A stretch of 38,350 nt of DNA, from the UHGV virus genome UHGV-0182861; one strand, given 5' to 3'. Within the stretch, counting starts at the first letter, position 1. The number at the start of each line of letters is the position of its first letter. The notes under the pieces are model-generated. The model was not told the DNA's origin. It made no database searches and saw nothing but the letters and a program-made list of their open reading frames with translations. This stretch comes from a virus. This document shows, piece after piece, positions 282 through 35,127 of the stretch. The position numbers were made by a program, and so were the translations under genes.

Positions 282-303
282 AGTGGCGGCAAAATGGCGG
301 CAG
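282..303. promoter_or_regulatory. Candidate integrase arm-type site (tandem TGGCGGCA half-sites), left arm
   Basis: agTGGCGGCAaaaTGGCGGCAg lies about 45 bp inside the left att copy; a near-identical motif lies about 95 bp inside the right att copy (35106..35127). Confidence 0.3.
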
Positions 304-343
304 GCATTCAGTCAAGCCCAGTTGCTACTACATGCGATCGCAA

Positions 344-1117
344 TTACAACTTAAAGAGTTTTGCTTGCCCTGGATTAACAGCTTCGACGTAGTTTTTGAC
401 CCCTATTCTGTGCGGCTCATAATTGCTTGAATAGAAATCAATCAGGAAGTCACTCATTTTCTGAGATGTGACTTTCATAACTCCCTTACTCAAAGTTAAA
501 TTAAACACGCTAATCTTTGACGATGGTGCCTGAGTTTTACTCATGTTGGCTTGATAACCAGATTTACGCATTGCCACTAGTGCTTCGTCGTAAGCCGCTT
601 GTAATTGGGCCAAATCGTTTGACGAGATGATCACATCATCCATAAACACACTTAGCTTGAGATCATGATGTTTGTTCAATCGGCGTAGTAAGCTACCAAA
701 ATAACTTTTATCTAAGCAGAGGGTTGCAAGTATTGGAGATTGAACAAAACCAAAAGGGAGGACATGCTTATGTGGACTATGGGACAAGTTTCTTACAGTT
801 GAAAATGTTGAGATTTCCCGCGCTTGAGAATAGGTGAAGTAGCTCTTTAGATCACGGGTGATACGACTACGGCTCGTTGACTGAAAAAATTGTTTAATAT
901 CAACAACGGCAAAAAAATCACTTTTTAAGTGTAATCTGGCAGCTTTAAGATGCCCACCAGTTCTTAGATGGTAAAAATAGAGTGGCGGAATCCACTTGTT
1001 TCTGACAGCCTGAAGTATCTTCCCTCCGACTTTACGTGCCTCAACGCTTGGGACATAAACCCAAACCCCGGGCTTAATCTCAAATTTATCTTCCCACCTT
1101 TGAACTTCTATTGTCAT
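344..1117 (-). CDS. Reverse transcriptase, compact retron-like (257 aa)
   Basis: Translation shows RT motifs: FFAVVDIKQFFQS (motif 1/2 with catalytic D), LPFGFVQSPILATLCL (motif B'), SVFMDDVII (Y/FxDD box) and G-Y-Q-A-N-M-S-K-T (motif D/E-like). About 40% GC versus about 53% for phage core. Poor SD; start overlaps upstream ORF by 32 nt. Confidence 0.75.
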   Translation of the reverse strand: MTIEVQRWEDKFEIKPGVWVYVPSVEARKVGGKILQAVRNKWIPPLYFYHLRTGGHLKAARLHLKSDFFAVVDIKQFFQSTSRSRITRDLKSYFTYSQAREISTFSTVRNLSHSPHKHVLPFGFVQSPILATLCLDKSYFGSLLRRLNKHHDLKLSVFMDDVIISSNDLAQLQAAYDEALVAMRKSGYQANMSKTQAPSSKISVFNLTLSKGVMKVTSQKMSDFLIDFYSSNYEPHRIGVKNYVEAVNPGQAKLFKL

Positions 1118-1274
1118 GAGTTAAATTGTTGTAGTTGAAGGCCATGTTAAGAACGGCGTAAACCGCACCAACTAAGCCAACAAACGCGGTTGCGCATTTG
1201 AGCATAGCGGTGATCAGTTCAACACGCGCCTTAACTAAGCCAAGTTCGTTTGTATCCATAACTTGTTCCTCCAT
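1086..1274 (-). CDS. Small hydrophobic protein (62 aa), overlaps RT start
   Basis: ORF with SD (tcAGGTatct-ATG) and a single hydrophobic helix ATAFVGLVGAVYAVL. Could be spurious if the region is ncRNA. Confidence 0.4.
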   Translation of the reverse strand: MEEQVMDTNELGLVKARVELITAMLKCATAFVGLVGAVYAVLNMAFNYNNLTHDNRSSKVGR

Positions 1275-1500
1275 AGATACCTGACGTCTCTTAGCGCAAG
1301 CGCATGGCCCTAACTAAATAAAAAATAACAACCAGTTAGCCCAGAAAGCTTAACAAGTCGGCGTCCGATTACATGGCAATCAGGTAATCGGTCCGCAGTC
1401 GCAAAGCGACAAACTACATATCTACGGAGTGGGGATAAATCCCCGCTAACGTCAGGCATTGTTAATTTAACCTCAACTTATAGAAAAGTATAGTTTTAAA
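1275..1500 (-). ncRNA. Candidate structured leader / retron-like ncRNA upstream of the small ORF-RT pair
   Basis: About 225-nt non-coding stretch with an 8-bp inverted repeat (cctgacgt near 1280 and acgtcagg near 1449) flanking several hairpins (gtcgcAAAgcgac, ggggaTAAAtcccc, ccgattac..gtaatcgg). No experimental or covariance support. Confidence 0.2.
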
Positions 1501-1520
1501 TCATGTAGTTATGTCGCCAT

Positions 1521-1739
1521 TTAAATCGGCAAACCCACCTGTTTAAATTTATGAGGATGCGGCTGAACCGGATTTGACTCTTTTGGCGTTGCAATCGAAC
1601 GAACAAAAGTTTCATGGGTAACAAAAGTATGGCTGCAGTTAATGTTCTGGCACTGGTTGTAACGCTCTTTGGTCAATGAAGATACCTGAAAACTGCTGCG
1701 AGTATGGGCGGCACTTCCACACAGTGGGCAAATCATCAT
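1521..1739 (-). CDS. ogr: Late-gene transcriptional activator, zinc-finger (P2 Ogr / 186 B family)
   Basis: 72-aa product from internal Met (MMICPLCGSAAHTRSS...CQNINCSHTFVTHE) aligns with recalled P2 Ogr CPLC...CQNVNCS motif; the 103-aa track ORF is N-extended. Confidence 0.85.
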   Translation of the reverse strand: MMICPLCGSAAHTRSSFQVSSLTKERYNQCQNINCSHTFVTHETFVRSIATPKESNPVQPHPHKFKQVGLPI

Positions 1740-1828
1740 TTTCGAGTTCTCCCCATTTTTGCTAAATTCACAATAATGATACCGAATTATTCCATTTTGA
1801 AAACTTAAAAGTTCTCCATTGCGAAGAA

Positions 1829-2929
1829 TCATTCCATTTCGAAATCATCAATCTTCACTTCAAGCTCCAGACTGGTCGTAAAACCGTTATCCGGGCTGAC
1901 AGTATGCGTCAGGGTGGTAATAGTCCATTCCGCATCATCTATCTGCTGTTTAAAGCCACTGACTTTCACTGGCATTTCCGTGTAGAGATCTGCCCGCCCT
2001 TCCGCCAGTTGTAGCGAGAATGACGCAACGCCGCGTTGCAGGCGTTCCCACTGCATTTTCGCCGCTCGTTCGGCGTTGCTCCGGTTGGCATAAGTGCGAT
2101 TAAGTACCAGCACGTTTTCATCCGTACCCACCAGGTAATCGCCCTGCTTCGCTTCCGGCTCTTTCTTCTGCTTCTTAGTTCTGCGCTTACGCTTCACCGT
2201 GGTGCTTTCTTTCTTCGCAGGTTCACGGGTATGCAACCAGCTGGCAATTACGCCCGTGTAGGCTCCGCGATCTGCCAGGGTAAAGCGGTGACTGTCGCCG
2301 TCCTTGCGTGTGATAGTGATCACTGGCAGTGGTTTACCAGTGGCGCTTTTGCCCTGCCCCTGCCGGATGAATAACAGATTGCCATTTTTCACCGACGCGA
2401 TGGCACCGTACTGTCGCGCCAGTCGCATCAGAAAACTGCCGTCACTCTCATTAGTCTGGTCTATATGCTCCACGGGCTTATCCGACAGCTCTTTACCCAG
2501 TGCCATCTTCAGCTTGTGCCGCGCGGCTATTTCCTTCACCACTTCCCCGATGGTGGTGTTATGCCACGATTTTTCACGGCGGGTATTCAGGGTTTCCCGA
2601 AAATCAGCACTTCGCGCCCGGATAGTCAGGCGGTCCGGTGCGCCAGTGTGTTCAATCTCGTCCACCGTGAATGCCCCTTTCGGGAAAAGCGGCTGCCCCT
2701 TCCAGCCCAGCGCCAGCGTAATGACCGCACCACGGCGCGGCAGCACGATTTTTCCATCGGCGTCGTCCAGCTCCAGATCAAGCTGGTCCGCTTCAAATCC
2801 CCGGTTATCCGTCAGCGTCAGCCCCATCAGGCGGTTGTCCAGCACAGTGGTGATATCCCTGCCTTCAATACTGATGCTGAATGCCGGAGTTTTGTTGCCT
2901 TTGTTAAGCAGTTCAGAGCTGAAATTCAC
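1829..2929 (-). CDS. D: Tail protein gpD (late control gene D)
   Basis: 366-aa product in conserved P2 position ogr-D-U-T; sequence resembles P2 gpD. Confidence 0.85.
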   Translation of the reverse strand: MNFSSELLNKGNKTPAFSISIEGRDITTVLDNRLMGLTLTDNRGFEADQLDLELDDADGKIVLPRRGAVITLALGWKGQPLFPKGAFTVDEIEHTGAPDRLTIRARSADFRETLNTRREKSWHNTTIGEVVKEIAARHKLKMALGKELSDKPVEHIDQTNESDGSFLMRLARQYGAIASVKNGNLLFIRQGQGKSATGKPLPVITITRKDGDSHRFTLADRGAYTGVIASWLHTREPAKKESTTVKRKRRTKKQKKEPEAKQGDYLVGTDENVLVLNRTYANRSNAERAAKMQWERLQRGVASFSLQLAEGRADLYTEMPVKVSGFKQQIDDAEWTITTLTHTVSPDNGFTTSLELEVKIDDFEME

Positions 2930-3411
2930 GACAGCAGCCCTCCCACCGTTTTACTGATATCGCTTAAGGCAGATGTTGCCGTTCCCTGCAGATTATTCAG
3001 TTGCGCACTGAGATCACCGAACATATCGGACAGGGATTCATCCACGCGTTTTAGCGACAGGGTGAACTCAATCCTGCGCGGCATACCGTCGCGGAAAAAC
3101 TCCGTTTTAGTCTGATTCAGTCCCTCAATCACATACATGCCGTAAATCGTGCCGCTGCCTTCAATCAGGGGCCATGCTTTCCCCTGTTCTGCCATCTGCT
3201 CCAGTGCCAGCAACGACAGCCTGCCGCCTGTTATTTCCGGCATAAGAACGCCAGAAAGCGTCAGCATGTCGTTATCCGGTCCCAGAAACTGCGTTGACGG
3301 GCGTCGGTTAACCCGGCTGTTAGCCGCATGTCGCCAGCTGCGCTGATACTGCAGCTCCTGATACGGCACGGTGCGCAGCATAAACACGTATAATCCCAGC
3401 ACCATCATCAT
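2926..3411 (-). CDS. U: Tail protein gpU
   Basis: N-terminus MMMVLGLYVFMLRT matches recalled P2 gpU; 4-nt overlap with D. Confidence 0.9.
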   Translation of the reverse strand: MMMVLGLYVFMLRTVPYQELQYQRSWRHAANSRVNRRPSTQFLGPDNDMLTLSGVLMPEITGGRLSLLALEQMAEQGKAWPLIEGSGTIYGMYVIEGLNQTKTEFFRDGMPRRIEFTLSLKRVDESLSDMFGDLSAQLNNLQGTATSALSDISKTVGGLLS

Positions 3412-6400
3412 GCGTCGTATCCCCCCTGATCGCTGTAGTTACTCCTGGCTTTTGCCTTCAGCCTGCGTTCACGTTCATCAAGCTGGCGGGCCACCTCCCG
3501 CGCAATATCCTGCGCACTTTGTCCTGGCTGCGTCTGAATGATGATCTGCGTCGGTGCCTCAATCCGTTGAACGGGCGGCACAGTGGCTGCACGACTCAAC
3601 ATCGCTTCGCCGCCTTTCGCGGGAAGTGCCAACGGATGCAACGGTGGAAGCTCTGCAGGCGCGGCAGCAACACCCATCATTCCGGCAACAACGGCAGCCA
3701 GTGCAGCTGTATTTCTCCGGCTGGTCACATTTGCCGGGCCGTTAACAATTTCCGGCCCGTTTTCACCGACGATGCCAAACTGCCCGCGCGGGATATAGCC
3801 GCCGCTGTCATACATCCCCGCAAAGCCATATCCCCATGACGGAAAACCACCCGATGGCATCATCACTTTACCGTCTGCATTCACCGTCGCAGGTTGCTGA
3901 CGCGTCACGCTTTCCGGCAGTTTCGCCTTTGCAGCCTCTTTACTGACAATGCCGAGTTTCTCCAGCAACCAGGAAACGCCAGATTTCAGGGAGTCCAGCG
4001 GATGCATGACCATATTCAGCCCTTCCGCCAGTGCCTCCCCGAATCTCCGCCCCATTGCCGCTGCACTCTGCAGTTCGGCAGAGGTCGACTTAACGGGCGT
4101 CAGCAGATCAGTAAACCAGCCCCACAGCGCCTGCACTTTGTCGCCAATCCACTGGAACACAGGCTTAAGCGGTTCGAACGCTGCACTGATGGGACCTGCC
4201 GCCGCTTTGAATCCTTCCACCACGCCACCGAGAAATGCGGTGATGGGTTGCCAGTATTTCCAGACAACCAGTGCCACACCCGCCAGTGCAGCAACCACAA
4301 GACCTATCGGACTGAGCAGAGCACCTAACAGACCAGATACGGCATACAGGGCAACGCGCAACATCGCCAGTGGACCAGATGCCAGTACTCGCAGCACCGT
4401 GCCTGTGGCAGCCAGCCCGCCGCGTAGTGCTGCCAGTGGATTCATAAACATCACAGCAACCGCACGTAAACCGGATAATCCAGACCGCAACAGTGCAACC
4501 GGCGCATCTGCTACAGTTTTCAGGACATTTCCCGTCAGTGATGCCGTGCGGTGCAAAGACGACAACGGCGCAGTAAGTAAACCCGCTGCGTTGCCCGATG
4601 AAGCAAGCCCGCGTCGCAGCAGTGCCAGTGGAGCGCCAGCCAGCCAGGACAACGCGCTGCTGGTTCGAGTTACTGCTGCCGTAACGGAAGGTAACGTTTT
4701 GATACCCAGCACAGAGAATCCCAGACGGATCACTGCCAGCGGCCCCAGCACTGCAGCCAGCGCCACCGCTAAGGTGCCGAGGCCTACGGTAACCGCAGCC
4801 ACAACAGCCGCTACTTTCATCAGTGTGCCTGTCAGTTCCGGGTTAGCTTCCACCCAGCGGCGCAACGCCCCCGTAATGCTTTTCACCGTGTACAGAATAT
4901 CCATCAGCGGCTGGCGCAGCGTTTCGCCCAGGCTGCTGAAGGTGTTCTGCGCTCCGGTTTTAACCAGCAACCACTGAGCAGAAAGTGAGTCCTTGTTGAT
5001 GTCGGATTCTTTCTGCATGGAACCGAGCGCATCATTGCCCGCTGTCAGTTTTAGCTGGCGCTGCAGTTCCGGCAGGTTGTTTGCCAGTTTCGCCGCGTCA
5101 TCACCAAACTCTTTACCAAACAACATGGTCATGGCAGACAGACGCTTGTCCTGCGGCAGTGCGTTCACCTTCTCCAGCACACGCTGGATAGTTCCCATCG
5201 CATCCTTCGTCATCTGCTTTTCAATCACTTCAGGATTGAGTTTCAGCAGATTCATCCCTTCAAAGAAACTCTTGCTTTGCATGGTGGCAATGGACAATTC
5301 ACGCACCATCGCGTTTGCTGCACTGGCTGCAACCTCCGGCGCAGCGCCCAGTGTCAGAAAGGTGGAACCCAGTGCCGCCGCTTTACGATAATCCAGACGG
5401 TCAGCCACACCGCCCAGACGTTGCATGACATCAATGATGTCCGCCCCTTTTGACATGGCGTTATCATCCAGATAGTTCAGCGCATCGCCGAGCTGTTCAA
5501 TATTACGGGTAGGTATTTTGTAGAGCTGGGCGATTTTCCCCAGACTTTCTGACAGTTCATCCGCTGGCAGCTCAAAGGCTATTGCCGCCTTTGCCGCCGT
5601 ACTGGCGAAGGCCAGCAGGTCACGTTTCTGGTCTTCCCAGCTGTCGTCAGGGTTTGCGACGTTCATACGCGCACCACCTTCAACCAGTGCAGCGAAGTCC
5701 ACCGCACCGTTTTCCATCGGCAACTGTTCGCTGGCAGCCTTGATGGCATCCTGCATTTCATAAAAACGTGCAGTGCGGTTGCCATTATCGTCACGCAGAC
5801 CATTGACCTGCTTTGCCACACCTTTCATGGCATCTTCCATGCTGGTATAGCTTTTTACTGCCGCCATCACTGGTGTCCCCATTGCCAGCCCTGCAGCCGT
5901 GGTGGTGGCTCCGGCTCCTGCAATACGATCACGCACCTCCAGCGAACGGGCATAACTGGCACGCGCCGCATTCATCCTGCGCTGAGCTTCCCCCAGTCGC
6001 TTCAGCCGCGCCTCCTGTTTTGACAATTCCTGGTTATAACGTGATGTTTCACGGGCTAAACGGGCAGTTGCTCCCGCATCATCTTTCGCAGAAATTCCCG
6101 CCCGATACAGTTCTGCACGCACAAGCGCCGTTTGCTTCTGCAAATATTTTTGTTGTTCTTCCAGGCGTTGGACTGCCAGCGTTTGCCGACCTAAAGCCAC
6201 AAGGTGCCGTTGTGATGGTTGTTCCATCGCTTCCAGCTCAGAACTAAGCAAATTTGCCTTCTGTCTGGCATAGTTCAGCCTGTCGCCTAACCTTTTGTTA
6301 TCGGCCTGCAGCTTGCGAAATTTTTCCAGGCTGTTACCCGCCTGATTGAGTTGCTTTAATGCGTCACGGGAGTTTCTGATTGCGCCAGCCAGCTCTTTCG

Positions 6401-6485
6401 AACTGGCCTGTGCAGCACGGAATGGGCGGGTGAGTTTGTCAACCGCATTAAGAATGACCTGCAGGCGCAGGTTATTATCACTCAT
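3408..6485 (-). CDS. T: Tail tape measure protein gpT
   Basis: 1025-aa Ala/Gly-rich, coiled-coil-rich protein downstream of E/E'; start overlaps E' stop (ATGAGTGA). Confidence 0.9.
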   Translation of the reverse strand: MSDNNLRLQVILNAVDKLTRPFRAAQASSKELAGAIRNSRDALKQLNQAGNSLEKFRKLQADNKRLGDRLNYARQKANLLSSELEAMEQPSQRHLVALGRQTLAVQRLEEQQKYLQKQTALVRAELYRAGISAKDDAGATARLARETSRYNQELSKQEARLKRLGEAQRRMNAARASYARSLEVRDRIAGAGATTTAAGLAMGTPVMAAVKSYTSMEDAMKGVAKQVNGLRDDNGNRTARFYEMQDAIKAASEQLPMENGAVDFAALVEGGARMNVANPDDSWEDQKRDLLAFASTAAKAAIAFELPADELSESLGKIAQLYKIPTRNIEQLGDALNYLDDNAMSKGADIIDVMQRLGGVADRLDYRKAAALGSTFLTLGAAPEVAASAANAMVRELSIATMQSKSFFEGMNLLKLNPEVIEKQMTKDAMGTIQRVLEKVNALPQDKRLSAMTMLFGKEFGDDAAKLANNLPELQRQLKLTAGNDALGSMQKESDINKDSLSAQWLLVKTGAQNTFSSLGETLRQPLMDILYTVKSITGALRRWVEANPELTGTLMKVAAVVAAVTVGLGTLAVALAAVLGPLAVIRLGFSVLGIKTLPSVTAAVTRTSSALSWLAGAPLALLRRGLASSGNAAGLLTAPLSSLHRTASLTGNVLKTVADAPVALLRSGLSGLRAVAVMFMNPLAALRGGLAATGTVLRVLASGPLAMLRVALYAVSGLLGALLSPIGLVVAALAGVALVVWKYWQPITAFLGGVVEGFKAAAGPISAAFEPLKPVFQWIGDKVQALWGWFTDLLTPVKSTSAELQSAAAMGRRFGEALAEGLNMVMHPLDSLKSGVSWLLEKLGIVSKEAAKAKLPESVTRQQPATVNADGKVMMPSGGFPSWGYGFAGMYDSGGYIPRGQFGIVGENGPEIVNGPANVTSRRNTAALAAVVAGMMGVAAAPAELPPLHPLALPAKGGEAMLSRAATVPPVQRIEAPTQIIIQTQPGQSAQDIAREVARQLDERERRLKAKARSNYSDQGGYDA

Positions 6486-6914
6486 CGTTGGCCCCGCTTC
6501 TCTGAATCGCTTTATACCGCCATTCCAGCACTTCTGTCAGCGGCATAACGTCAGTAACGGATGGCGGCCAGTGAAAAATGGTGGCGATATCTGCCACCAG
6601 ATCGTCAACCGTCAGGCTGTCGGTAAACCGGCAAGCACCGACTTCTTCAACAAAAAAGTGACAACCTCAACCGACATGGCAGTGAGATCTGCCGGGTCCA
6701 TCTCTGCAATTTCCTGTGCGGTCAGTGCCGGGCTGGAGATGCGGGGGATCACGGTCATCATCGCGTTCACATCCATATCCATAATGGCCTGCAGGCGTGT
6801 ACCGCGCAGCGCACCGGACTGCGGTTTACGCAGCACAATTTCGGTGATTTCAGTTTTACCACGCTTGATGGGGGTATCCAGTTGAATGGTCTTTTCAGTC
6901 TGCTTATCGCTCAT
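6478..6914 (-). CDS. E: Tail assembly chaperone gpE and frameshift-extended E+E' (gpE alone = 6612..6914)
   Basis: 100-aa E ORF contains slippery T-TTT-TTG (plus strand caaaaaa, 6651..6657); the -1 frame stays open to a TGA at 6478..6480 overlapping the T start, as in P2 E/E'. Confidence 0.8.
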
Positions 6915-6968
6915 TTTGCTGTCCTGTAAATTGGGTCCTGGCGCGGCATTCCGCGCCGTTCAGATACA

Positions 6969-7484
6969 TCAGAGGCCGAGGGCGTTGCGGTGCGCTTCCA
7001 TCAGGTCCACACCGTCCACAATTTCCACCATGTTGATAAGGTCCACTTCATAGAGCACCTCACCATTGATGGTCAGCTTCGCGTAGCTGTTGGTACTGGT
7101 CACTTTGGTGGTGTTGCTTTCGCCCGTCTTCCACTCGCCGGAATCCACTTCTTTGTGACGCCCACGCACGACAAGCTCCACGGCCTGCACTTCCCCGGTA
7201 TCGTCACGCTGGATAGAGCCGGTAAAGCGCAGTTGGATGCCATCCACCGTGGATTTGCCCATCTGCTTAAACAGCAGCAGTTCAGTACCACCAATGGAAA
7301 ATTCTGTGTCCAGAGCACTGTCATCAAGACCCAGATCCACATCCACCGCCCCCGGCATTCCGCCGCCGCGATACTTCTCATATTTGCGGGTGAATTTCGG
7401 CAGCGTCAGCGACTCAACGATCCCCTGCCAGTTGTTCCCGTCGTTAAACAGGTTCAGGTGTTTTAATTTGCGTGGTAAAGCCAT
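6969..7484 (-). CDS. FII: Tail tube protein gpFII
   Basis: 171-aa product following the sheath gene in P2 order. Confidence 0.9.
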   Translation of the reverse strand: MALPRKLKHLNLFNDGNNWQGIVESLTLPKFTRKYEKYRGGGMPGAVDVDLGLDDSALDTEFSIGGTELLLFKQMGKSTVDGIQLRFTGSIQRDDTGEVQAVELVVRGRHKEVDSGEWKTGESNTTKVTSTNSYAKLTINGEVLYEVDLINMVEIVDGVDLMEAHRNALGL

Positions 7485-7493
7485 GTTATCCCC

Positions 7494-8666
7494 TTACGCG
7501 CTGACCTGGCTGGAGAAATTCACCAGGTACTGATCGGTGATGCGCTGACGCAGCATCAGGTTTTCAAGTGGCGGCACTGGCGTGTAGTCGTAGTCGATGG
7601 TGAGCTTCCCGGCTTTCAGAGTATCTTTGTCGTTCACCGACTCATCCAGCCAGCAATCACCACCAATGAGATAGCCCTGACTGACCAGGCTGCGCATTTT
7701 GGCGCGGATACCTTCGATAATGTCGCGGGCCAACGACGGGTTCAGCGGTTTGTCCACCGCCCACATATGCGCTTCTGCCATTGTGTCCATAAGTACCTGC
7801 GCCGTGCGGGTGTAGTTTTCGAAGGCAAAGAGCGGGTCATCACTCAGGCAGCGGGAACCCCAGAAGCGGAAACCGTCTTTGCGGATAAGGGTGGTGACGT
7901 CGTTCTGGTTCAGCAGTCCCGCATCTGTTGCCGTGTCCTGCAGATCCCAGAACACATCAGCAGAAATTCCGGTGACACCGTTAACGCCCACGTTGGACAG
8001 GCTTTTGTGCCATCCGGTCTGCTCGTCAATTTTAGCGCGCAGACCAAGCGCACGGGCGGTGGCATAAGCCGTTGCTTCGGCATTCAGCACCGTGTCCCAG
8101 CCAGTAAAGTCGGGCCAGATCAGCATCCCTTCGCGCTGGCTGAAGTTTTCACGGTAAGTGATCGCCTCCTGTACCGTCTTGCAGCCATACGCTGACAGGT
8201 AAGCAAACCCACGCAGGCTTTGCGCCACGCTCAGCAACTCAGTCGCTACCGCCTTGGTGTCGTGGCCTGGCACGCCGAGAATGCGCGGTTTAACGCCGAG
8301 CTGTGACTGGGCAGATAACAGGGCTTTCATGCCTGTTTTTTTACCTTCAGCAGTCACTGCGCCGATGATATTGGTCGTGGTTTCTTCTTCCGTTTCACCC
8401 TGCGGCACACGCACAACAATGGTCACGGGTTTTGCCTGGTCAGCGATGGCATCCAGCGAACGGGCCAGTGTGCCGGACTCACCCGCTTTACCACTGGCGG
8501 TAAGCACATCAGTGATCAGCACGGGTTTATTAAGAGGAAACATTTTTGCATCGGCATCATCGCCCGTGCAGACCATGCCCACGATGGCGGTGCTCACCGT
8601 GGTAATGGATCGGGTGCCTTCGTTGACTTCAACAACGCGCACCCCGTGGTGGTAATCCTGAGCCAT
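7494..8666 (-). CDS. FI: Contractile tail sheath protein gpFI
   Basis: 390-aa product [19 protein letters not shown]... resembles P2 FI. Confidence 0.9.
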
Positions 8667-26692: not shown

Positions 26693-29107
26693 TTAATACA
26701 GGTTTCGCCACTTATCATCTTCCTGCAAACGCTGGTTCCGACAGAAGATACGCAGGCCTGCTCCTGACGGAATACTGCCACCGCGAAGGAGCAGATCGAC
26801 CTCTTTCTCGCTGCCATCAAATCCTCTTGACTTCAGTTCATAGACGAGCTGCTGTCGCTGATGGTCTGTAATTCGCTGTTTGTAGTCTTTACGCCGTTTC
26901 GGTTTCACCAGGCGTAACCTTGCAGCCAGTTCCCGGCGCTCTTTTTTGCTCATACTGTGCAGGTAATCGTGCAACTCCTTGTCATCCATGCGGGTAATGT
27001 CCGTCCTGGTATCCCCATCAGCTGATTTGTCTTTCCCTTGTTGGTTCAAATTTTCAGCAAGGGGACAGTTATTGCCACGAGTCCAAGGGGCGCAAGCGCC
27101 CTGGTCGGCTGCCGCCTCCTGAACGTCAACGGCCTTACGAACCATTTTCCACTTCACGGCATGAGTGCAGATCTTGCCCTCTGCAATAGGTGACCAGATG
27201 CCATAAATACGAATGCCGTGATCGCCATAGGCGGTCGGCTCTTCGTTGATTTCATAAGCAGTTCTGATGAGGTGATATTTACGGGGAACCAGTACGCCGC
27301 CCTGCTTCATGATGTAGGTGGCAAAACAACCAGCATCAGCAGCAGCCAGGATTGCATCAAGGCGCGGGTTATCCAGTACCGGCGCACCTGCTTTTTTGTC
27401 ACCCTGTTGCCTTGCCGCCTGACCAGCCAGCAATCGCAGTTCACGGTAAGCCTGACGCCCCGGAATGCCAAAGAAGCGGAATTGCTGAACACGATGCAGA
27501 GACGCCCAGGCATTCACGTATTCAGCGTTATCACGCAGGGATTTACCCGTTTCCTTGCTGATCTCGCCAGCCAGACCACGCCCGTCAATGTTCTTACTGA
27601 TATATTTCGCGATGTAGCTTGTCGGCGTTCCTTTGCGCGGGTTAATCAACTCAGACTTAAAGCGTGGTCCCGTGTTATTCCCCAGCTCCTCGCGGTCTTC
27701 ACGAATGGCAAACTTACGCAACAAAGCAGTAATGGCGCGGCGATCTTTTTTGCGCATAAAACACAACAGGTGCCAGTGAACTGTACCGTCATGATGCGGC
27801 TCAGCCACCCGCACGCCATACCAGCGCAATCCGGCTTTGTGCATCGCCTTACGAAATGCAGCAAACATGCCAACCAGATAATCACTGCTTTGTCTTACCG
27901 TCGCATTTGTCCAGGTCGGGTTGGGCCTGCCGTTATTTAGCGTGGAATGGAAACGTGACGGACAGGTGATGGTGTAGAAAACGGCGCAGTCACCGCGCAT
28001 TTCCGCGATAAGCTCCAGGCCTTTAACACAGGCCATCATCTCATTGCGGCGATGCGCAGGGTTGCTGCTGCTGGCGTTTACCACATCCTCCATGTCCAGC
28101 GTGTCGCCGTCTTCGTTCACCAGTTCATGAGAACGGAAAAACTCCAGCGACTTACGGCGCTGCTCACGTTTATGCATCACGGCTTCATAGCTGACATAGG
28201 GAGATGCTTTTTTGCTGACCAGACAGACAGCACGCAACTGCTCTTCCCGCCATTCGCAACGCATCTTCCATAATTTCCGATACCACCAGTCGGCGCACAG
28301 CATACGCGCCAGCGAACCCGGAATGAGTTCATAGGGCACAGGTTTGCGGCGGTTTCTTTTCCGGCGGAGTTGCTCAAACGCAGGCGGTATGACATCCAGT
28401 CGCAGGGTTTCTGCTGCCACCTTTTCCCATGTCTTGCGGATTTCTTCCGGCTTAACATCATCGGAGGCGTACAAATCACCACAAGCGGCATCAAGACACA
28501 TGCTCATATGCGCAGCGACAAGGGTGGACAGGCGTTTCACCTGATCCTGACTCATTTCAGGCAGGCTCAGCAGACCGTCCAGCCCTTCATGGCTTGCCAT
28601 AAAACGAAAAGATGCAGATAGCTGGCTGTCGCGTACATGCTCCAGTCGTTCCAGGCATGGCTTAATCGTCTCACGCAAATAGCGGGAATAAGCCTTTGGC
28701 CTGCCCAGGTTGCTGAAGTATTTAATACGTTGCATCAGCGGCTTGCTGATATGGGAAGGCTGGGCGTTGACATCCGCCAGAATGACCATGTCTGGATTAA
28801 AACGCTGCTGCTCATGCGCCAGCTTTGCCCGGCTAATTAGCTTATCCTGCTCCATTTCGCGCTGGACAGGATCACGGGATTCATTAAAGAAATAACGCTC
28901 CCAGACCTGATCACTCAGTGCCTCGCGGCGCAGTTGTTCCTGCTCGTTATCGGCAGCGTACAGAGTGATCAGGTTTGAAAGCGCAGAAACCGGCGCAACT
29001 TCCGCCGGGTCCAGATAAGGGTTAATGGCCTTTTTCGGGCTGTTCCATGAGAATGCTGCGGCAGCCTCGTTAAAGCCGCAGCAGTTGTTCATATCGGCAT
29101 GGCTCAT
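26693..29107 (-). CDS. A: Replication initiation protein gpA (rolling-circle endonuclease)
   Basis: 804-aa product in the P2/186 A position with an HUH-like motif (VHWHLL) and downstream catalytic tyrosines (YIAKYISK). Confidence 0.9.
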
Positions 29108-29961
29108 GCACGTACTCCGTACACGGCAGAACTGTCCACGCCACGCGAATAATCAAATCCCACCCAGCAGCGCGGCCCGGAAACAGCAATGATTTCTGTT
29201 GCTGATTTACCCTCTCCAGCTGCCACACCGATGTTGCGTTTTGCCTTGATGTAGTGGTGAGTAAAATTGCGATACAGCGAACGGATCAGGGATGTGTCAC
29301 TGTTAGAAACAATGACCGGATGTCCTTCTGATGACCGATGTTCAAGAACGGATGCCAGGTGATACTGGTCATCTTCAGTGAAGCCGTCAGTGTGATAACC
29401 GGAAAACGTGCCGTCATACGGCGGATCGCAATACACCACATCCCCCGCCTTCAACATCGCCAGCGTTTCATCAAAGCTGGCGCAGATAAACGTTGCCCGC
29501 TGGGCTTTTTCTGCAAATGCGCGAATTTCTTTTTCAGGGAAATACGGATTTTTATAATTACCGTAGGGAATGTTGAAATGCCCGCTCTTGTTATAGCGAC
29601 ATAAACCACGGTAACCGTGACGATTGAGATACAGGAAATATACCGCTTTCATGAAATCAGTAATTTCAGTGGAGTAATTAAACTCCTGCCTTATGTTGTA
29701 ATAAGCCACCTCCCTGTTTGCGATCTCAAATAAAACTCTGGCGCGAGATATAAACGATTCACAATCAGCGGCAACCTTTTTATAGAGGTTGATTAAATCA
29801 GGATTAATATCCGCAACCAGATAGCTGGGGTAATCCGTCTCCATCATCACAGCACAGGAACCCGCGAAAGGTTCAACCAGTCGCGGGCCAGCAGGAAGGT
29901 GTTTTTTCAGTTCGGACATAATGGCGGTTTTATTTCCCGCCCATTTCAGGATGGTGCTCAT
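29104..29961 (-). CDS. dam: DNA adenine methyltransferase (Dam family)
   Basis: Trimmed to [11 protein letters not shown]; contains the DPPY catalytic motif and FAGSCAV SAM-binding motif; start overlaps upstream stop (ATGA). Confidence 0.85.
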
Positions 29962-30185
29962 ACAGCACCTCCGTTGTAATGTTTGCCTTTCAGCTCTGCG
30001 ATTTCCTGACAGGTAATGCAAAGCTGCACACCTGGAATGGCGCGGCGGCGTGCTGGCGGAATTGGCGCTTCACACTCAATGCAAAGCACGCGGGACACGC
30101 CCGGCGTTTTGGCACGGGCAGCACGAATATGGCGCTGGCGTTCTTCTTCAACGCGCTGCTGTACAAGATCCATTGCATCAGCCAT
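29958..30185 (-). CDS. C4 zinc-finger protein (TraR/DksA family)
   Basis: 75 aa with CIECEAPIPPARRRAIPGVQLCITCQ four-Cys motif. Confidence 0.75.
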   Translation of the reverse strand: MADAMDLVQQRVEEERQRHIRAARAKTPGVSRVLCIECEAPIPPARRRAIPGVQLCITCQEIAELKGKHYNGGAV

Positions 30186-30424
30186 TAGTGGATCTCCTGC
30201 GCTTCGTTCTGGATTGCTTCAGCAGTTACACGCAGTAGTTCTGCTGCTTCGACGTGGTTTAGCTGGCGGGATGTGATATGACACGCCAGGCTATCAAGGC
30301 GAGCTGCCATTGCTTCAGCCCTTGCCCGGCGTTCTTCCAGACGAGCCTCTGTCAGTAAAATATTAAGCCCTGCATCATCCGGTCCGGTTTTAGTCGTGAG
30401 GGTTTCAATATTACGCATAATCAA
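30185..30424 (-). CDS. Hypothetical early protein (79 aa)
   Basis: ORF in the early operon between CII and A; no recognised motif. Confidence 0.5.
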   Translation of the reverse strand: MIMRNIETLTTKTGPDDAGLNILLTEARLEERRARAEAMAARLDSLACHITSRQLNHVEAAELLRVTAEAIQNEAQEIH

Positions 30425-30485
30425 TTCTCCTGAATTTAGATAAAGGGATACCCGGCGGGTTTACGCCATTAATTTCATTAGTTGG

Positions 30486-30827
30486 TTAATTCGGCATGGT
30501 TAGCCGTCTGGGAAATAAGCTCACCACTGCACGAAAATGATTCATTGCTTTAATCAACTCCCGCTTTTCGTCAGTGGTCAGCTCATTAATGCTGATGCTA
30601 TGACGTTCAGCTGGAATTTTTGCCATAAAGAATATAGCAGCCAGTGCCCGTTTATTTTGTTCGTTATTGATATCCCGTGGATCACGCATATCTTTAATAA
30701 ACCGCTCAAGCTCTGACTCAATATTCAGGCCAAATACTTTCGCCCTTAACTCCGCAATATGGTTAAGTCCATTCAGGCGTTCACCGGGGCTTAATGGAAC
30801 AGTCGCCGCAGCGCCTTCAATAGCCAT
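30486..30827 (-). CDS. Hypothetical early protein (113 aa)
   Basis: ORF in the early operon; no recognised motif. Confidence 0.5.
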   Translation of the reverse strand: MAIEGAAATVPLSPGERLNGLNHIAELRAKVFGLNIESELERFIKDMRDPRDINNEQNKRALAAIFFMAKIPAERHSISINELTTDEKRELIKAMNHFRAVVSLFPRRLTMPN

Positions 30828-31021
30828 TTGTTCCCCCGTTTTTTCGTAGATAGTTCTGCCAGCAATTCATCTTGTGAACGGCACGGATGCCAGCGTTTAC
30901 CATCCTCCCCCATGATCCAGCCGTGACCGTAGTGCATTGCCGGGCTTTGTTTTACCAGCAGCGATGCAAATGATGGTTCTTTCGTCAGCATAAGCACCTC
31001 ACAGCAAACCGAATGACGCAC
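30791..31021 (-). CDS. Hypothetical early protein (76 aa)
   Basis: ORF overlapping the CII 3' end; start uncertain. Confidence 0.35.
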   Translation of the reverse strand: MRHSVCCEVLMLTKEPSFASLLVKQSPAMHYGHGWIMGEDGKRWHPCRSQDELLAELSTKKRGNKWLLKALRRLFH

Positions 31022-31508
31022 CGAGGCCAGTTACAGTATCAACTGCACTTGCCATCGCAGGATTAGCCTGTAAACGGGCCTGCAATGAAACAGCCGCCAG
31101 CGCCATCAGTCGTGTTACAGAGTTAATGCTGCTGATAGCATCACGACGACCTGCACTGGTTTTTACATCGCCAGATACCGCACCTGCAGCAACACGCCCG
31201 ATCTCTGCAGTTGCACTCATGACGTAATGCGGCAGTTTCTCTTTTGCCACCTCATTAATCGGAACACATGGCAGACAATGAATCTGTGCCAGAAAACCGT
31301 CTACCAACGTTGAATCTTCAGTCAGATCGGTAAGCAACCAGATTTCTGGTGCGGTGAGCTGATGCGGTTGATCTGGATTGAGTTTGTTTCGCAGTGTCTG
31401 AACATTCATTCCTGCACGTTCTGCCAGCTTTGCCATATTGTGACGTAGTGCAAAAGCTCTACAGGCTTCATCAAAATGCGGATGTTTGGAAATCTTGTAA
31501 TCAAACAT
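30999..31508 (-). CDS. cII: CII-like lysogeny-establishment activator (186 type)
   Basis: 169 aa; MFDYKISKHPHFDEACRAFALRHNMAKLAERAGMNVQTLRNKLNP... closely matches recalled 186 CII. Confidence 0.85.
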   Translation of the reverse strand: MFDYKISKHPHFDEACRAFALRHNMAKLAERAGMNVQTLRNKLNPDQPHQLTAPEIWLLTDLTEDSTLVDGFLAQIHCLPCVPINEVAKEKLPHYVMSATAEIGRVAAGAVSGDVKTSAGRRDAISSINSVTRLMALAAVSLQARLQANPAMASAVDTVTGLGASFGLL

Positions 31509-31540
31509 GCTGCCCCCTTAGAAAGTTCTCATAATTGAAC

Positions 31541-31789
31541 TTAGTCACCAACGATGACATTAAAGTTGAAATTGGATTGGCCCATGTTTTTCCTGACTTG
31601 TTCCTTTTTGTACTCAAGGTAACGTATACATACTCTGTCTTTCGGTTTTTCTTTTCTTTCCAAGAAGTTAGCGAGTTTACCATTATGAATCATTTGATAT
31701 ACCGAACCGCGAGAGCGGCCTTCCCATTCCGCGAACTCAGCTGGTGTCGCCATCACTTTTGGTACACGAATTGAAATGTCGTTGCTCAT
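31541..31789 (-). CDS. apl: Apl/Cox-like excisionase and transcriptional regulator
   Basis: 82-aa HTH protein, first gene of the lytic operon, divergent from cI. Confidence 0.7.
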   Translation of the reverse strand: MSNDISIRVPKVMATPAEFAEWEGRSRGSVYQMIHNGKLANFLERKEKPKDRVCIRYLEYKKEQVRKNMGQSNFNFNVIVGD

Positions 31790-31842
31790 AGTGCAGTATC
31801 TCTCGATTAAGGTTTGGTTTACGTCGTTTTATCTTGTTTTAT

Positions 31843-31917
31843 TTGATTCAATATTTGATACACCAAGATACTACGATCCAATATTTGATACGTCAACAGG
31901 ATTGAAAAATGATACAA
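31843..31917. promoter_or_regulatory. Immunity switch region with repeated TTTGATAC-type operator motifs
   Basis: tttgattca, caatatttgataca, caatatttgatacg and aatgatacaag within the apl-cI intergenic region at roughly 25-30 bp spacing. Confidence 0.5.
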
Positions 31918-32541
31918 GTAAAAGCTGGCGAGAATACAGGGGGAAGAGAGGCTATCCATAGGCTAATGGCAGCCTATGATTTCAAGTCCAGACAGCAACT
32001 TTGCGATCACTTGGGCGCATCAAAAAGCACTATGGCAAACAGATACTTAAGAGATAGTTTTCCTGCAGAATGGGTGATTCAGTGCGCTTTGGAAACAGGA
32101 GTTTCTTTACTGTGGCTAACTACCGGACAGGGCGATCCAGGTTCAAACATTGACCCTAAAAAAAATATCAATTCCGTGAACTCTAGCAAAGTTAAACCTC
32201 TTTCGGAGCTTGTATCTCCTGAAATTGACAAGGCAACTCTCAACGGAGGTTTGCTGATCGATGCTGGAAAAGCAATCATTGATAGCAGCATACTCCCCTC
32301 AGACTCAAGCAACCTGCTGCTGGTGACTACTTCTGGTGATTCTTATTTAATAGATCGCAACCAAACACCACCAGTAAATGGTACGTGGTTAGTGGACATC
32401 GACGGGATAAAAAGCATTGTAAAATTGACACGACTCCCGGGAAACAGATTAGTAGTGCATCAGGATGATTCATCGTTTGAGTGCGAACTGGATGACATTG
32501 AGGTAATAGGCCGCGCACTGAAAATCATTAAGAGCCTTTGA
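31909..32541 (+). CDS. cI: CI immunity repressor (186 type)
   Basis: 210 aa; CALETGVSLLWLTTGQG and WLVDIDGIKSIVKLTRLPGNRL...FECELDDIEVIG align with recalled 186 CI. Confidence 0.85.
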   Translation: MIQVKAGENTGGREAIHRLMAAYDFKSRQQLCDHLGASKSTMANRYLRDSFPAEWVIQCALETGVSLLWLTTGQGDPGSNIDPKKNINSVNSSKVKPLSELVSPEIDKATLNGGLLIDAGKAIIDSSILPSDSSNLLLVTTSGDSYLIDRNQTPPVNGTWLVDIDGIKSIVKLTRLPGNRLVVHQDDSSFECELDDIEVIGRALKIIKSL

Positions 32542-32542
32542 T

Positions 32543-33556
32543 ATGACCATCAGAAAACAGCCGAACGGAAAGTGGTTATGTGAATGCTACCCAAACGGGC
32601 GAGATGGCAAACGCGTACGCAAACAATTTGCGACGAAAGGCGAAGCCATTGCGTTTGAGAATTTCACCATGGACGAGGTAAACAAGAAACCTTGGCTGGG
32701 AGAAAAGGAAGATCGGCGACACCTATCAGAATTAATTGAGCTGTGGTATTCCCTGTATGGTCAAACACTCGCAGACCCCAAGCGACTCATGGCGAAACTT
32801 GGAATTATCTGTAATGGTCTGGGCGATCCCATCGCTTCAGAGCTGACTGCCGGTGACTTTACGAAATACCGCGAAGCACGGCTAAAAGGTGAAGTGCGAA
32901 ATGAAGATGGCACGCTGATGTCGCCCGTTAAGCCCCGCACGGTAAACCTTGAACAGCGCAATCTATCATCTGTGTTCGGTACATTAAAAAAACTAGGACA
33001 CTGGTCAGCACCAAACCCGCTGGCAGGACTTCCGACCTTCAAAATTGCCGAAGGTGAGCTGGCTTTTCTTTCCACGGACGAAATCAAGCGCCTGTTGGCG
33101 GCATGTGCTGAATCTCAAAGCCCTAGCTTACTAATGATTGCAAAAATATGCCTGGCTACTGGCGCACGGTGGAGTGAAGCCGAAAATCTGCAGGGCCATC
33201 AAATATCGAAATACCGAATTACTTATACAAAAACAAAAGGCAAGAAAAACCGTACTGTGCCGATATCTCAGGATCTGTATGATGAACTCCCCAAAAACAG
33301 AGGAAAGTTATTCACGCCATGCAGAAAAGCCTTTGAGCGGGCAGTAAAGCGGGCCGGTATTGACCTACCGGAGGGCCAATGCACCCACGTGCTTCGCCAT
33401 ACATTCGCCAGTCACTTTATGATGAACGGCGGAAACATACTGGTACTGCGTGATATTTTGGGTCATGCCGATATAAAAATGACCATGATTTACGCCCACT
33501 TTTCGCCCGATCACCTTGAAGACGCGGTGACTAAAAATCCTCTTTATAATTTGTAG
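32543..33556 (+). CDS. int: Tyrosine integrase (P2/186 Int family)
   Basis: 337 aa with C-terminal catalytic motifs (R...HVLRHTFASHFMMNGG...LGHADIKMTMIYAHF) directly downstream of cI. Confidence 0.9.
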   Translation: MTIRKQPNGKWLCECYPNGRDGKRVRKQFATKGEAIAFENFTMDEVNKKPWLGEKEDRRHLSELIELWYSLYGQTLADPKRLMAKLGIICNGLGDPIASELTAGDFTKYREARLKGEVRNEDGTLMSPVKPRTVNLEQRNLSSVFGTLKKLGHWSAPNPLAGLPTFKIAEGELAFLSTDEIKRLLAACAESQSPSLLMIAKICLATGARWSEAENLQGHQISKYRITYTKTKGKKNRTVPISQDLYDELPKNRGKLFTPCRKAFERAVKRAGIDLPEGQCTHVLRHTFASHFMMNGGNILVLRDILGHADIKMTMIYAHFSPDHLEDAVTKNPLYNL

Positions 33557-33568
33557 TGGAGACCTATT

Positions 33569-35089
33569 GTGATTCAAAAATTAGATATTCAATCTGATGC
33601 GGTTGCAAAGTTAAGAATGGATGCTATTCGTTCAGAAATCCAAGGTTATTCCCCTGATTTATTTATCGAATTCTGTATGCAATATAACTTACAAAAATTT
33701 GAAGATAATATCCACATGTTACGACACATGCCTTGGATTGTTAATTTATGTCTAAAGTGGTCTGCGTCAGTAACTGGCAAGAATAAAAAATTCAAAATCC
33801 TCGATAAAAATCAAGCAATAAAACTCTTCCAAAAAACTTATGAAACCTTGAACATTATTCCTATCGGTCTTGAGAGGAAGAATGGCATGCATTTCTTCAT
33901 TAGAAATAATCTATACCAACAAGGAATCTACCAGAAAATTGACGCTCTAAACACAATTAGCAGACAAGTCTTTCTATTTTCAGAACTTGAAAAAAACCAT
34001 AAAATAAAGACAAGTTTTTTTACTATCACGAATGTATCTATCGAAGACTTTCTTAAGCTATCTTACATATTAATAACTCACATAACAGAAGAGCATCCCG
34101 TGAGAAAAATGAATGTAGATACATTTACTATATTATTTGACATCATTCCTAGAAATACCATTGAGAAATTTCTTGATGCAATATCAATAAATTACAATGA
34201 ACTATCTACATTTTGCAAATCAAAAACCTATGATAAACCTTTGCTTGAATACTACTCATCATCACCTTTTCTTGAAAAACCATTAATAAAAAAAGGTTCA
34301 GAGTATTTTCAGATACACACACAACTGACTTCAACAAGCATACAGACGTTCATATATGATCTTTTAAGAAGAACTGATGCCGAGAAGTTCATGGATAGCT
34401 TTGGAAATGTATTTGAAAATGCACTGGAATTAATACTAAAAGAAAGCGAAATTGATTTTCATAACGAAAAACACCTTAAAGAACGACTACCTAAAGATAA
34501 TAAAGTAGTTGATTATTTCATTCCACATACTGAGGCAAATATTTTCATTGATGCTAAAGGCGTTGAGATACACCAAAAAGGCATGGTAACATTACGCCCT
34601 GAGGATATTGCAGGAAAAATAAAGAAATCGGTATTAAAAGCAATCGAACAATCTCACGAAGTTAATCGAGAAATATACTCTAATGAGCGAATAATAGCTC
34701 CATTCAGGGCTAACTCATATATCATTTGCATTACATATAAAAACCTTTTCTTAGGCAATGGTAGTATCCTAGCTAATACTTATGCTAAAGATGAGATGAA
34801 TAAGATATATGACAAGTTTAAACATAACTATCATATCCCTACAGAGAATATTTTTTGTCTATCATTTGAAGAGTTTGAATATCTCATTGCATCATGCAAA
34901 AGGTTTAAAATTCCGCCTCATGAAGTCTTGCAATCTGCAGTTGAAAAGAACAAAAAACCATCAAGTGCTGCTTTCCTATTTTCCCACCATATAGAAGACT
35001 ATTTTGATAGAGTAGTCAATTCAGTCATAGTCAATGAGGCAGGCATTAAAATGGTAGATTCTATTATCAATAAATTAAAGCCTGAATAA
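33569..35089 (+). CDS. Orphan 506-aa protein, AT-rich; possible PD-(D/E)xK nuclease-like motif
   Basis: GTG start 12 nt after int stop with SD GGAG; about 30% GC; segment VVDYFIPHTEANIFIDAKGVE fits a D...(D/E)xK pattern by eye; no other recognised motif. Confidence 0.55.
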   Translation: MIQKLDIQSDAVAKLRMDAIRSEIQGYSPDLFIEFCMQYNLQKFEDNIHMLRHMPWIVNLCLKWSASVTGKNKKFKILDKNQAIKLFQKTYETLNIIPIGLERKNGMHFFIRNNLYQQGIYQKIDALNTISRQVFLFSELEKNHKIKTSFFTITNVSIEDFLKLSYILITHITEEHPVRKMNVDTFTILFDIIPRNTIEKFLDAISINYNELSTFCKSKTYDKPLLEYYSSSPFLEKPLIKKGSEYFQIHTQLTSTSIQTFIYDLLRRTDAEKFMDSFGNVFENALELILKESEIDFHNEKHLKERLPKDNKVVDYFIPHTEANIFIDAKGVEIHQKGMVTLRPEDIAGKIKKSVLKAIEQSHEVNREIYSNERIIAPFRANSYIICITYKNLFLGNGSILANTYAKDEMNKIYDKFKHNYHIPTENIFCLSFEEFEYLIASCKRFKIPPHEVLQSAVEKNKKPSSAAFLFSHHIEDYFDRVVNSVIVNEAGIKMVDSIINKLKPE

Positions 35090-35105
35090 GTCTCCCAAGC
35101 AAAAC

Positions 35106-35127
35106 CAGTGGCGGCATTTTGGCGGCA
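35106..35127. promoter_or_regulatory. Candidate integrase arm-type site (tandem TGGCGGCA half-sites), right arm
   Basis: agTGGCGGCAttttGGCGGCAg, about 95 bp inside the right att copy; counterpart at 282..303. Confidence 0.3.

Follow-up and report, generated by a model that had tools for sequence, protein, structure and literature searches.

The window analysed here, a 38,350-nt stretch of viral DNA taken at its full length, contains a complete Klebsiella P2/186-like prophage of the Fels-2/SopEPhi type. Just inside each end of the prophage lies a short tandem repeat built on the word TGGCG, and the question raised by this locus is which protein, if any, the two tandems serve: the integrase, the excisionase, a regulator, or none at all if they belong to the host gene ssrA.

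Prophage boundaries and the ssrA core

The att core is a perfect 47-bp direct repeat on the + strand, found at 191..237 (the junction next to ssrA, at the left end of the prophage) and at 35222..35268 (the int-proximal junction), and it corresponds to the 3' end of ssrA. The copy at 35222..35268 is the original ssrA 3' end, and the last 47 bp of the ssrA copy at the left junction were supplied by the phage upon integration. The 3' part of this tmRNA gene, at 1..237 (+), was recognized by the Rfam tmRNA model RF00023 (148 bits, window 1-235, 5' end cut), while ARAGORN reported no tmRNA in the window because the window edge truncates the gene. Directly 3' of the core, a phage-borne hairpin terminator (244..271, +; scored as terminator-like, with a stem of 12 pairs and then a run of T) is kept in relatives and replaces the native ssrA terminator. 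The native terminator lies in host DNA just beyond the prophage, at 35301..35330 (+), and sequence resembling it comes after the core in unrelated loci too; it contains no TGGCG motif.

A first-pass annotation had proposed a single element spanning 238..35221, and these bounds coincide with the ends of a near-identical record, Klebsiella phage Kp4845-2. The window and this record differ in length by 1 nt; a frameshift in the reverse transcriptase (RT) gene, suspected from that difference, was discarded when the indel was placed at 1738, in the ogr region and outside the RT gene. Genes and sites are arranged as cI-int-(cargo)-arm-core-arm-(cargo)-ogr-D.

The tandem motif

The left motif, AGTGGCGGCA-AAAT-GGCGGCAG (full copy AGTGGCGGCAAAATGGCGGCAG), occupies 282-303 on the + strand, exactly where it had been placed, and starts 45 bp past the left core, also as given. 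The right motif, AGTGGCGGCA-TTTT-GGCGGCAG (full copy AGTGGCGGCATTTTGGCGGCAG), exists on the same strand, so that the two share one orientation as claimed, but its position had been set one base too low (35106..35127); it lies at 35107-35128 and ends 94 bp, not 95 bp, ahead of the right core, with 93 bp intervening. Each motif contains two direct copies of the 8-mer TGGCGGCA with an 11-bp period: the ogr-proximal pair at 284..302 (284-291 and 295-302, +), which matches the 186-type consensus discussed below, and the int-proximal pair at 35109..35127 (35109-35116 and 35120-35127, +).

Exact matches to TGGCGRYA-N3-TGGCGRYA occur in the window only at the two prophage ends. When up to two mismatches are allowed, four matches are found against 0.28 expected, and the two that are not at the ends carry two mismatches each and lie inside genes. 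The single 8-mer TGGCGGCA is also in excess (12 occurrences against 2.46 expected), which was considered as a signal and then put down to composition: all eight interior copies are in coding regions of 55% GC structural genes, and among the 18,286 interior 8-mers the word only takes rank 52, similar GC-rich words being equally common or commoner. The interior copies look compositional, and only the two tandem pairs stand out.

Probable identification as integrase arm-type sites

The TGGCGGCA pairs are very probably arm-type binding sites of the prophage's own integrase, a 337-aa tyrosine integrase of the 186 type encoded at 32543..33556 (+; Pfam Phage_integrase and Int_N). The consensus published for 186-type arm sites is tgccGCCActt, reverse complement aagTGGCggca (Nilsson et al. 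2011, PMC3448106), and the motif half AGTGGCGGCA is the exact reverse complement of TGCCGCCACT (tgccGCCAct). Against the 186 consensus YAYCGCCAYTY, the sites score 9/11 and 10/11 by hand count. Once the prophage ends are joined, two copies with an 11-bp period stand on each side of the 47-bp core. SopEPhi and Fels-2, which also integrate into ssrA, have been grouped with the phages having 186-type arm repeats (PMC3448106).

The window integrase shares 55% identity with 186 Int and 40% with P2 Int. Three N-terminal positions of Int have been proposed as discriminators of arm type (Nilsson et al., PMC3448106), and at all three the window protein has the 186-type residues (W11, E14 and Y16), where P2 has Y, D and R. 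The integrase is proposed to bind the motif through its N-terminal ~50 residues.

Conservation in relatives

Relatives were drawn from 80 IMG/VR loci with an Int at least 91% identical, 50 of which have a downstream core and enough upstream sequence. All 50 carry the int-proximal pair, as TGGCGRCR-N3(4)-TGGCGRCR, about 113 bp upstream of the core (-112 to -114), and the pair is kept regardless of the cargo between int and motif, which ranges from 0 to ~2.7 kb. Within these 50 loci the spacer between the 8-mers varies while the 8-mers themselves are invariant. The ogr-proximal pair is found 46-47 nt past the core in 23 distinct relatives; a third ogr-proximal copy, present in 186 and in 15 of those 23, is missing from the window.

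The left copy lies just 3' of ssrA in the lysogen, and the single word TGGCGGCA is fairly common in GC-rich phage genes, so that the motif might be conserved host sequence following ssrA, a possibility that the annotation itself had raised, or a chance repeat with no part in recombination. Both ideas are refuted. In the virion or complete genomes of Cartapus, SEN8 and RE-2010 one core is flanked by both pairs, which makes the motif phage DNA and not host DNA. In the window both pairs are internal to the att repeats, and the motif is missing after ssrA in 15 of the 32 loci on viral contigs whose ssrA body is intact. Beyond the int-proximal core the motif never occurs, unless a second prophage comes next in tandem. 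Against chance stand the restriction of the exact tandem to the two ends of the window, with its low expectation even at two mismatches, and the fixed position in every one of the 50 relatives.

Column conservation sets in exactly at the first base of the motif and falls to zero directly beyond each pair; defence genes adjoin both. On the outer side the cargo differs: the window has GapS1, Cartapus and RE-2010 have a RES-domain protein, and others have no cargo. These patterns could also arise if the pairs marked boundaries of another kind, for example hot spots of cargo-exchange recombination or regulatory sites for CI or Ogr, which we consider improbable. A sharp boundary is to be expected if nothing essential to attP lies beyond the pairs, so that the sequence there varies freely. 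The likely CI operators, two copies of CAATATTTGATAC at 31848-31890, are unrelated in sequence to the motif, and nothing in the data points to a second function.

Likely excisionase operators and IHF-like sites

The annotation had also allowed that the motifs might be associated with Apl or IHF. An apl/cox-like excisionase and repressor gene is present at 31541..31789 (-; PHROG excisionase, 1e-31; Cox-like excisionase and repressor, 1.4e-23), and a 186-type CI repressor gene lies immediately upstream of int at 31909..32541 (+; Pfam Phage_CI_repr and Phage_CI_C). Between apl and cI, direct repeats TAAAAC/TAAAAC/TAAACC with 10-bp spacing (31816..31841, -) are likely Apl operators of the switch region. 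Four TAAAAC-like hexamers with exact 10-bp spacing adjoin the int-proximal pair at 35134..35169 (+; TAAAAA at 35134, TAAAAC at 35144, AAACAC at 35154, TAATAC at 35164) and are likely the attP operators of the same excisionase, judging by the shared word: in the whole window, TAAAAC-N4-TAAAMC occurs only in this array and in the switch region. The hexamer columns are conserved in 48 distinct relatives.

That the TGGCGGCA pairs themselves are operators of an Apl/Cox-type excisionase, or recombination directionality factor (RDF), rather than sites for Int is quite unlikely, despite some resemblance. RDF operators are likewise direct repeats about one helical turn apart in attP (PMC7498355), and the 186 Apl hexamers TTGGCA/ATGGCA look superficially like TGGCG. 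In 186 and P2, however, there are at least five RDF sites, all of them on the int-proximal arm, whereas the window motif occurs on both arms with two copies each; in phage 186, seven Apl operators lie between pR and pL and five at attP (PMC7498355; NC_001317). RDF operators recur between the early promoters, but no TGGCG occurs in the apl-cI switch region of the window (31790-31908), which carries TAAAAC at 10-bp spacing instead. It is thus TAAAAC, and not TGGCG, that is found in the switch region, on a single attP arm and in at least four copies, and the exact match of the motif to the published arm consensus also argues against its being an excisionase operator.

Association with IHF found no better footing. 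A scan with the IHF consensus WATCAANNNNTTR gave 36 matches in the window against 33.5 expected, with no enrichment, and none overlaps 282-303 or 35107-35128, the nearest being at 240-252 and 35170-35182. The latter, AATCAGTGTGTTA (35170..35182, -; 1 mismatch), lies between the Apl-like repeats and the core and is a weak candidate, argued from its position by likeness to the IHF footprint of 186.

Covariation of the arm word with the integrase N-terminus

Integrases with the residues W-E-Y that use the ssrA core are accompanied by the TGGCG tandem in 19 of 19 loci. A second class at the same core has W-D-R, with D and R as in P2 and 67-72% identity; there the tandem RTCCAY-N5-GTCCAY stands at -112 to -123 in all 10 loci, and none of the 10 has TGGCG. 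These diverged ssrA-targeting integrases, with their P2-like N-terminal residues, are thus accompanied by repeats of the P2 type, TGTCCAC, at about the distance of the TGGCG tandem.

This covariation is not clean. The int/cI/apl module tends to co-evolve as a whole (PMC3448106). The two Int classes may therefore have different excisionases as well, and the arm-word change cannot by itself separate Int from Apl. It does agree with the published consensus, the geometry of the 186 attP, the 186-type Int residues and the fixed distance from the core, which together bear out the prediction of integrase arm-type sites flanking the core. The two classes may, tentatively and at somewhat under even chances, represent a natural specificity switch in which one ssrA core is combined with the arm word TGGCGRCA (E14/Y16) or TGTCCAY (D14/R16). 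W11 is common to both integrase lineages at this core. Were such a switch real, only two of the three discriminator positions of 2011 would set arm recognition, and the arm and core specificities of P2-like integrases could be re-paired through two substitutions.

Proposed attP architecture

Circularization of the phage genome would bring its right and left ends together in one attP of ~260 bp, comprising in order the int-proximal arm pair, the four Apl-like operators, the IHF-like site, the 47-bp core, the hairpin terminator and the ogr-proximal arm pair. By analogy with lambda and P2, Int would bind the arm 8-mers through its small N-terminal domain, presumably as two adjacent monomers on one face of the helix, since the repeat period is 11 bp. 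The core would be held by the core-binding and catalytic domains of the same Int molecules, and bending proteins, with putative roles for IHF and Apl, would make the arms fold over the core. Recombination with ssrA would then separate the arms, leaving the ogr-proximal pair at the left junction beside ssrA and carrying the int-proximal pair with the Apl operators to the right junction. Excision would again need both arm pairs, together with Apl.

Implications for the element and its cargo

With the prophage boundaries confirmed, the attP appears complete, including both arm pairs, the core, the Apl-like operators, int and apl, and the element is therefore probably still able to excise. The arm pairs form the outer limits of the conserved attP module, and exchangeable defence cargo genes lie directly outside them, which makes the motif a practical landmark for cargo slots in Fels-2-type prophages. 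Near the RT gene of the window, Rfam gave no match to a retron msr. As a feature the motif is ordinary; it adds to the biology nothing beyond one more instance of a site class that has already been described.

Comparison with known systems

The closest described arrangement is that of phage 186. Its record (NC_001317) gives Int arm-type sequences YAYCGCCAYTY as predicted features, with three copies on the left side of attP and two on the right side. In the orientation used for the window, 186 has AATGGCGATA-a-AGTGGCGGTA, Apl sites, IHF, core, hairpin and GAGTGGCGATA-g-AATGGCGGTG, with the order and 11-bp period of the window. The two share the word TGGCG(R), direct-repeat pairs flanking the core in identical orientation relative to int, and a hairpin terminator in the same position between the core and the ogr/B-proximal pair. 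The RDF operators and IHF site that 186 has between its core and int-proximal pair have candidate counterparts in the window, the Apl-like hexamers and the IHF-like match. They differ in that the core of 186 lies in tRNA-Ile and that of the window at the 3' end of ssrA, and the 8-mer ends in GTA/ATA in 186 but in GCA/ACA in the window. The window also lacks the third, inverted ogr-proximal copy, has Apl-like operators TAAAAC instead of TTGGCA, and has cargo genes inserted outside both pairs.

The Fels-2/SopEPhi group (Felsduovirus and Elveevirus), represented here by the phage records RE-2010, SEN8 and Cartapus, has an identical 47-bp ssrA core, arm pairs and distances, and the Ints of these three phages are 94-96% identical to that of the window. 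The window differs from the group in its Klebsiella host and in its cargo, which is GapS1 and a retron-like RT where group members carry a RES-domain protein, an exonuclease or nothing. The second 8-mer has GGCA in the window and GACA in many relatives.

P2 also has a heterobivalent Int and, on each of its P and P' arms, two direct 8-mers with an 11-bp period in the orientation seen in the window (TGTGGACA repeats). It has an IHF site too, and its RDF (Cox) sites lie on the arm next to int. Its recognition word is, however, TGTCCACA, its Int has Y/D/R at the N-terminal positions, its short core lies outside RNA genes, and its int-proximal pair overlaps the end of int. In lambda, the arm-type sites of attP (P1, P2 and P'1-P'3) are bound by an N-terminal arm-binding domain, so that Int bridges arm and core, and accessory bending proteins set directionality. 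Lambda differs from the window in consensus, number of sites and spacing, and it uses its sites differentially in integration and excision.

Prophage boundaries and the tandem motifs

Between the two att copies lies a complete prophage of the P2/186-like kind. The att core is a perfect 47-bp direct repeat (ATGTAGGAATTTCGGACGCGGGTTCAACTCCCGCCAGCTCCACCAAA) at 191-237 and 35222-35268, corresponding to the 3' end of ssrA, which is found at the window start (1-235, 5' end cut off; Rfam tmRNA, 148 bits). Klebsiella phage Kp4845-2 is 99.8-99.9% identical to the prophage at both ends, and its record ends exactly at window positions 238 and 35221, the bounds that the first-pass annotation had assigned to a single element. 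A single-base deletion relative to this phage, at 1738 inside a 103-aa ORF with an Ogr/Delta zinc finger, may change the N-terminal extension or start of ogr (1521-1832, minus strand). Other genes include a D homologue (1829-2929, minus), named after the "late control protein D" labels that stand alongside in the records of related Klebsiella phages, a long ORF whose position, as in P2, suggests a putative replication protein (26693-29107, minus), a Cox/Apl-type excisionase (31541-31789, minus), a 186-type CI (31909-32541, plus) and a tyrosine integrase (32543-33556, plus). Between apl and cI, CAATATTTGATAC occurs twice (31848-31860 and 31878-31890, 30 bp apart), and these copies probably serve the switch as CI operators. 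The window Int shares 94-96% identity with its counterparts in Salmonella phage SEN8 and Escherichia phage Cartapus, 55% with that of 186 and 40% with that of P2. SopEPhi and Fels-2 are known to integrate at ssrA (PMC3448106).

Both tandem motifs lie on the plus strand, in the same orientation as originally noted. The left one, AGTGGCGGCAAAATGGCGGCAG, occupies 282-303 as first placed, and the right one, AGTGGCGGCATTTTGGCGGCAG, had been set one base low and lies at 35107-35128. Each carries the 8-mer TGGCGGCA twice with an 11-bp period. Exact TGGCGRYA-N3-TGGCGRYA was found in the whole window only at the two prophage ends; allowing up to two mismatches gave four matches against 0.28 expected, the other two lying inside genes with two mismatches each. 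The single 8-mer is over-represented in the window (12 copies vs. 2.46 expected), the eight interior copies all fall in coding regions of structural genes of 55% GC, its rank among interior 8-mers is only 52nd, and these copies were treated as compositional.

Cargo genes and a neighboring island

A 506-aa ORF (33569-35089, plus; 31% GC) separating int from the int-proximal arm pair encodes an antiphage protein of the GapS1 family (NCBIfam NF047931, 430 bits vs. a cutoff of 320), with no match in Pfam or PADLOC; relatives either have a RES-domain protein in this slot or leave it empty. A 257-aa reverse transcriptase (344-1117, minus; 40% GC), encoded between ogr and the ogr-proximal arm pair, matches Pfam RVT_1 and PADLOC RT_VI (6.6e-18). 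It is short for a retron reverse transcriptase, its weak likeness to these enzymes stays under the NCBIfam cutoffs, and no msr RNA was found near it with Rfam. A 477-aa SEFIR/TIR protein (24371-25804, minus; PADLOC bSEFIR, 9.6e-103; 36% GC) is encoded between the portal/terminase and the replication genes, which we take to be where P2 has its tin/old cargo. A P4-type integrase gene (35390-36661, plus) begins just to the right of the native ssrA terminator, with Arm-DNA-bind_3, Phage_int_M and Phage_integrase domains, thus indicating a second island in tandem at ssrA. GGGWCC(C)AA occurs three times (35392, 35407 and 35422; 15-bp spacing) just upstream of an ATG at 35432, which is likely the true start of this integrase.

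Conservation of the arm pairs and the attP layout

Eighty IMG/VR loci encode an Int at least 91% identical to that of the window, 50 of them with a downstream ssrA core and enough upstream sequence. The strict int-proximal pattern occurs at -113 from the core in 45 of the 50, and the remainder show minor variants, either TGGCGGCG or a 4-nt spacer. Between the int end and the core lie 133 bp to about 2.8 kb, so cargo differs between loci, yet the distance from motif to core is fixed. The unselected column profile, drawn from 48 distinct sequences, shows almost no information content until the base preceding the motif, a maximum in TGGCG and CA, low values in the 3-nt spacer and a patchy course beyond, with the TAAAAC and core-adjacent bases conserved. 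The ogr-proximal pair lies 46-47 nt past the core in 23 distinct sequences, conservation stopping just beyond it; 15 of the 23 have a third copy as well, either a direct one at +77 or one at +87 that is inverted, and the window lacks it. The pairs are thus conserved at a fixed distance from the core in related ssrA-integrating P2-like phages, the comparison by which the first-pass annotation had proposed to check them.

Joining the right prophage end to the left gives an attP ordered as int, the GapS1 cargo, an arm pair (35109-35127), four TAAAAC-like hexamers (35134-35169, exact 10-bp spacing), an IHF-like match (35170-35182), the core, a hairpin terminator (244-271), the second arm pair (284-302), the reverse transcriptase cargo and ogr. 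Complete phage genomes have this joined arrangement, both pairs around a single core: Cartapus has ATGGCGACATTTTGGCGGCAG, the core and then GTGGCGGCAAAATGGCGACAG, and SEN8 is arranged alike; the RE-2010 record, also compared, stops shortly past the core.

The pairs had alternatively been regarded as associated with Apl or IHF. In phage 186, Apl has operators at pR-pL as well as at attP (PMC7498355), and in the window this double location is mirrored by the TAAAAC repeats, not by the motif: the apl-cI intergenic region is without TGGCG and carries instead, on the apl strand, TAAAAC-N4-TAAAAC-N4-TAAACC, a pattern found elsewhere in the window only beside the int-proximal arm pair. A reading of the pairs as Apl operators is therefore not supported. 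As to IHF, no IHF-like match in the window overlaps the motif, and this reading was rejected.

Covariation with the integrase and origin of the motif

Among 119 viral-contig loci with the ssrA 3' end, the TGGCG tandem accompanies an Int upstream of the core and at least 85% identical to that of the window in 21 of 21 cases, and in 19 of 19 where the Int N-terminus aligned from residue 1. Ten further loci (L103, L129, L131, L141, L148, L168, L170, L171, L175 and L181) have, upstream of the same core, a second class of Int, 67-72% identical to the window Int. Three N-terminal positions have been proposed to discriminate P2-type (Y/D/R) from 186-type (W/E/Y) Ints (PMC3448106); in the window Int these residues are W11, E14 and Y16, and in the second class, with GEWLCDLRP, they are W, D and R. 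All ten of these loci carry the P2-type word, RTCCAY-N5-GTCCAY, at -112 to -123, and none carries TGGCG. The repeat word therefore changes together with the Int N-terminus on an unchanged core, which suggests that positions 14 and 16, rather than 11, track the arm word. The excisionase may also differ between the two Int classes.

Thirty-two of the 119 loci have the ssrA body upstream, and the motif lies downstream of it in 17 and is absent in 15. The native ssrA terminator past the right core of the window (35301-35330) is also without it, so the motif is not the common host sequence downstream of ssrA that, according to the first-pass annotation, would have refuted its reading. Chance or host sequence is excluded by the conservation in relatives and by this pattern of absence. 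DNA past the int-proximal core is without the motif except in L124 and L171, where a Fels-2-type element begins immediately behind the core with its ogr-proximal arm. The junction in L171 (an IMGVR_UViG contig, core at 8766) is a hybrid, its order being an int-proximal arm with TCCAC repeats, the core and the Fels-2-type ogr-proximal arm TGGCGGCAAAATGGCGGCA; the upstream Int is of the second class, and this locus thus holds a second, different P2-like prophage in tandem at ssrA.

Comparison with phages 186 and P2

Annotations in the phage 186 record include "predicted Int arm-type recognition sequences" with the consensus YAYCGCCAYTY, three sites left and two right of attP, together with a terminator hairpin, five Apl sites and a pair of IHF footprints. 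In the direction from int to B, its int-side arm is AATGGCGATA-a-AGTGGCGGTA, followed by the Apl sites, IHF, the core and the hairpin, after which the B-side arm consists of GAGTGGCGATA-g-AATGGCGGTG and an inverted CCGCCACT. Order, orientation and period of the arm sites are the same as in the window, although the core of 186 is tRNA-Ile and that of the window the ssrA 3' end. P2 has the same geometry with the repeat word TGTCCACA. P2-like phages have been divided into a tgTGGaCa and a tgccGCCActt group (Nilsson et al., PMC3448106), and reverse-complementing TGCCGCCACT gives exactly the window motif AGTGGCGGCA.

The 186-type consensus, the 186 attP geometry, the W/E/Y residues of Int, the conservation and the covariation agree, and on this comparative evidence the original interpretation of the pairs as integrase arm-type sites is judged correct, as predicted sites. 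Binding by Int, with its stoichiometry, is inferred, and so are the roles given here to the Apl-like sites and the IHF-like site. The pairs of the window add another example to a class of sites known from earlier descriptions of this phage group.
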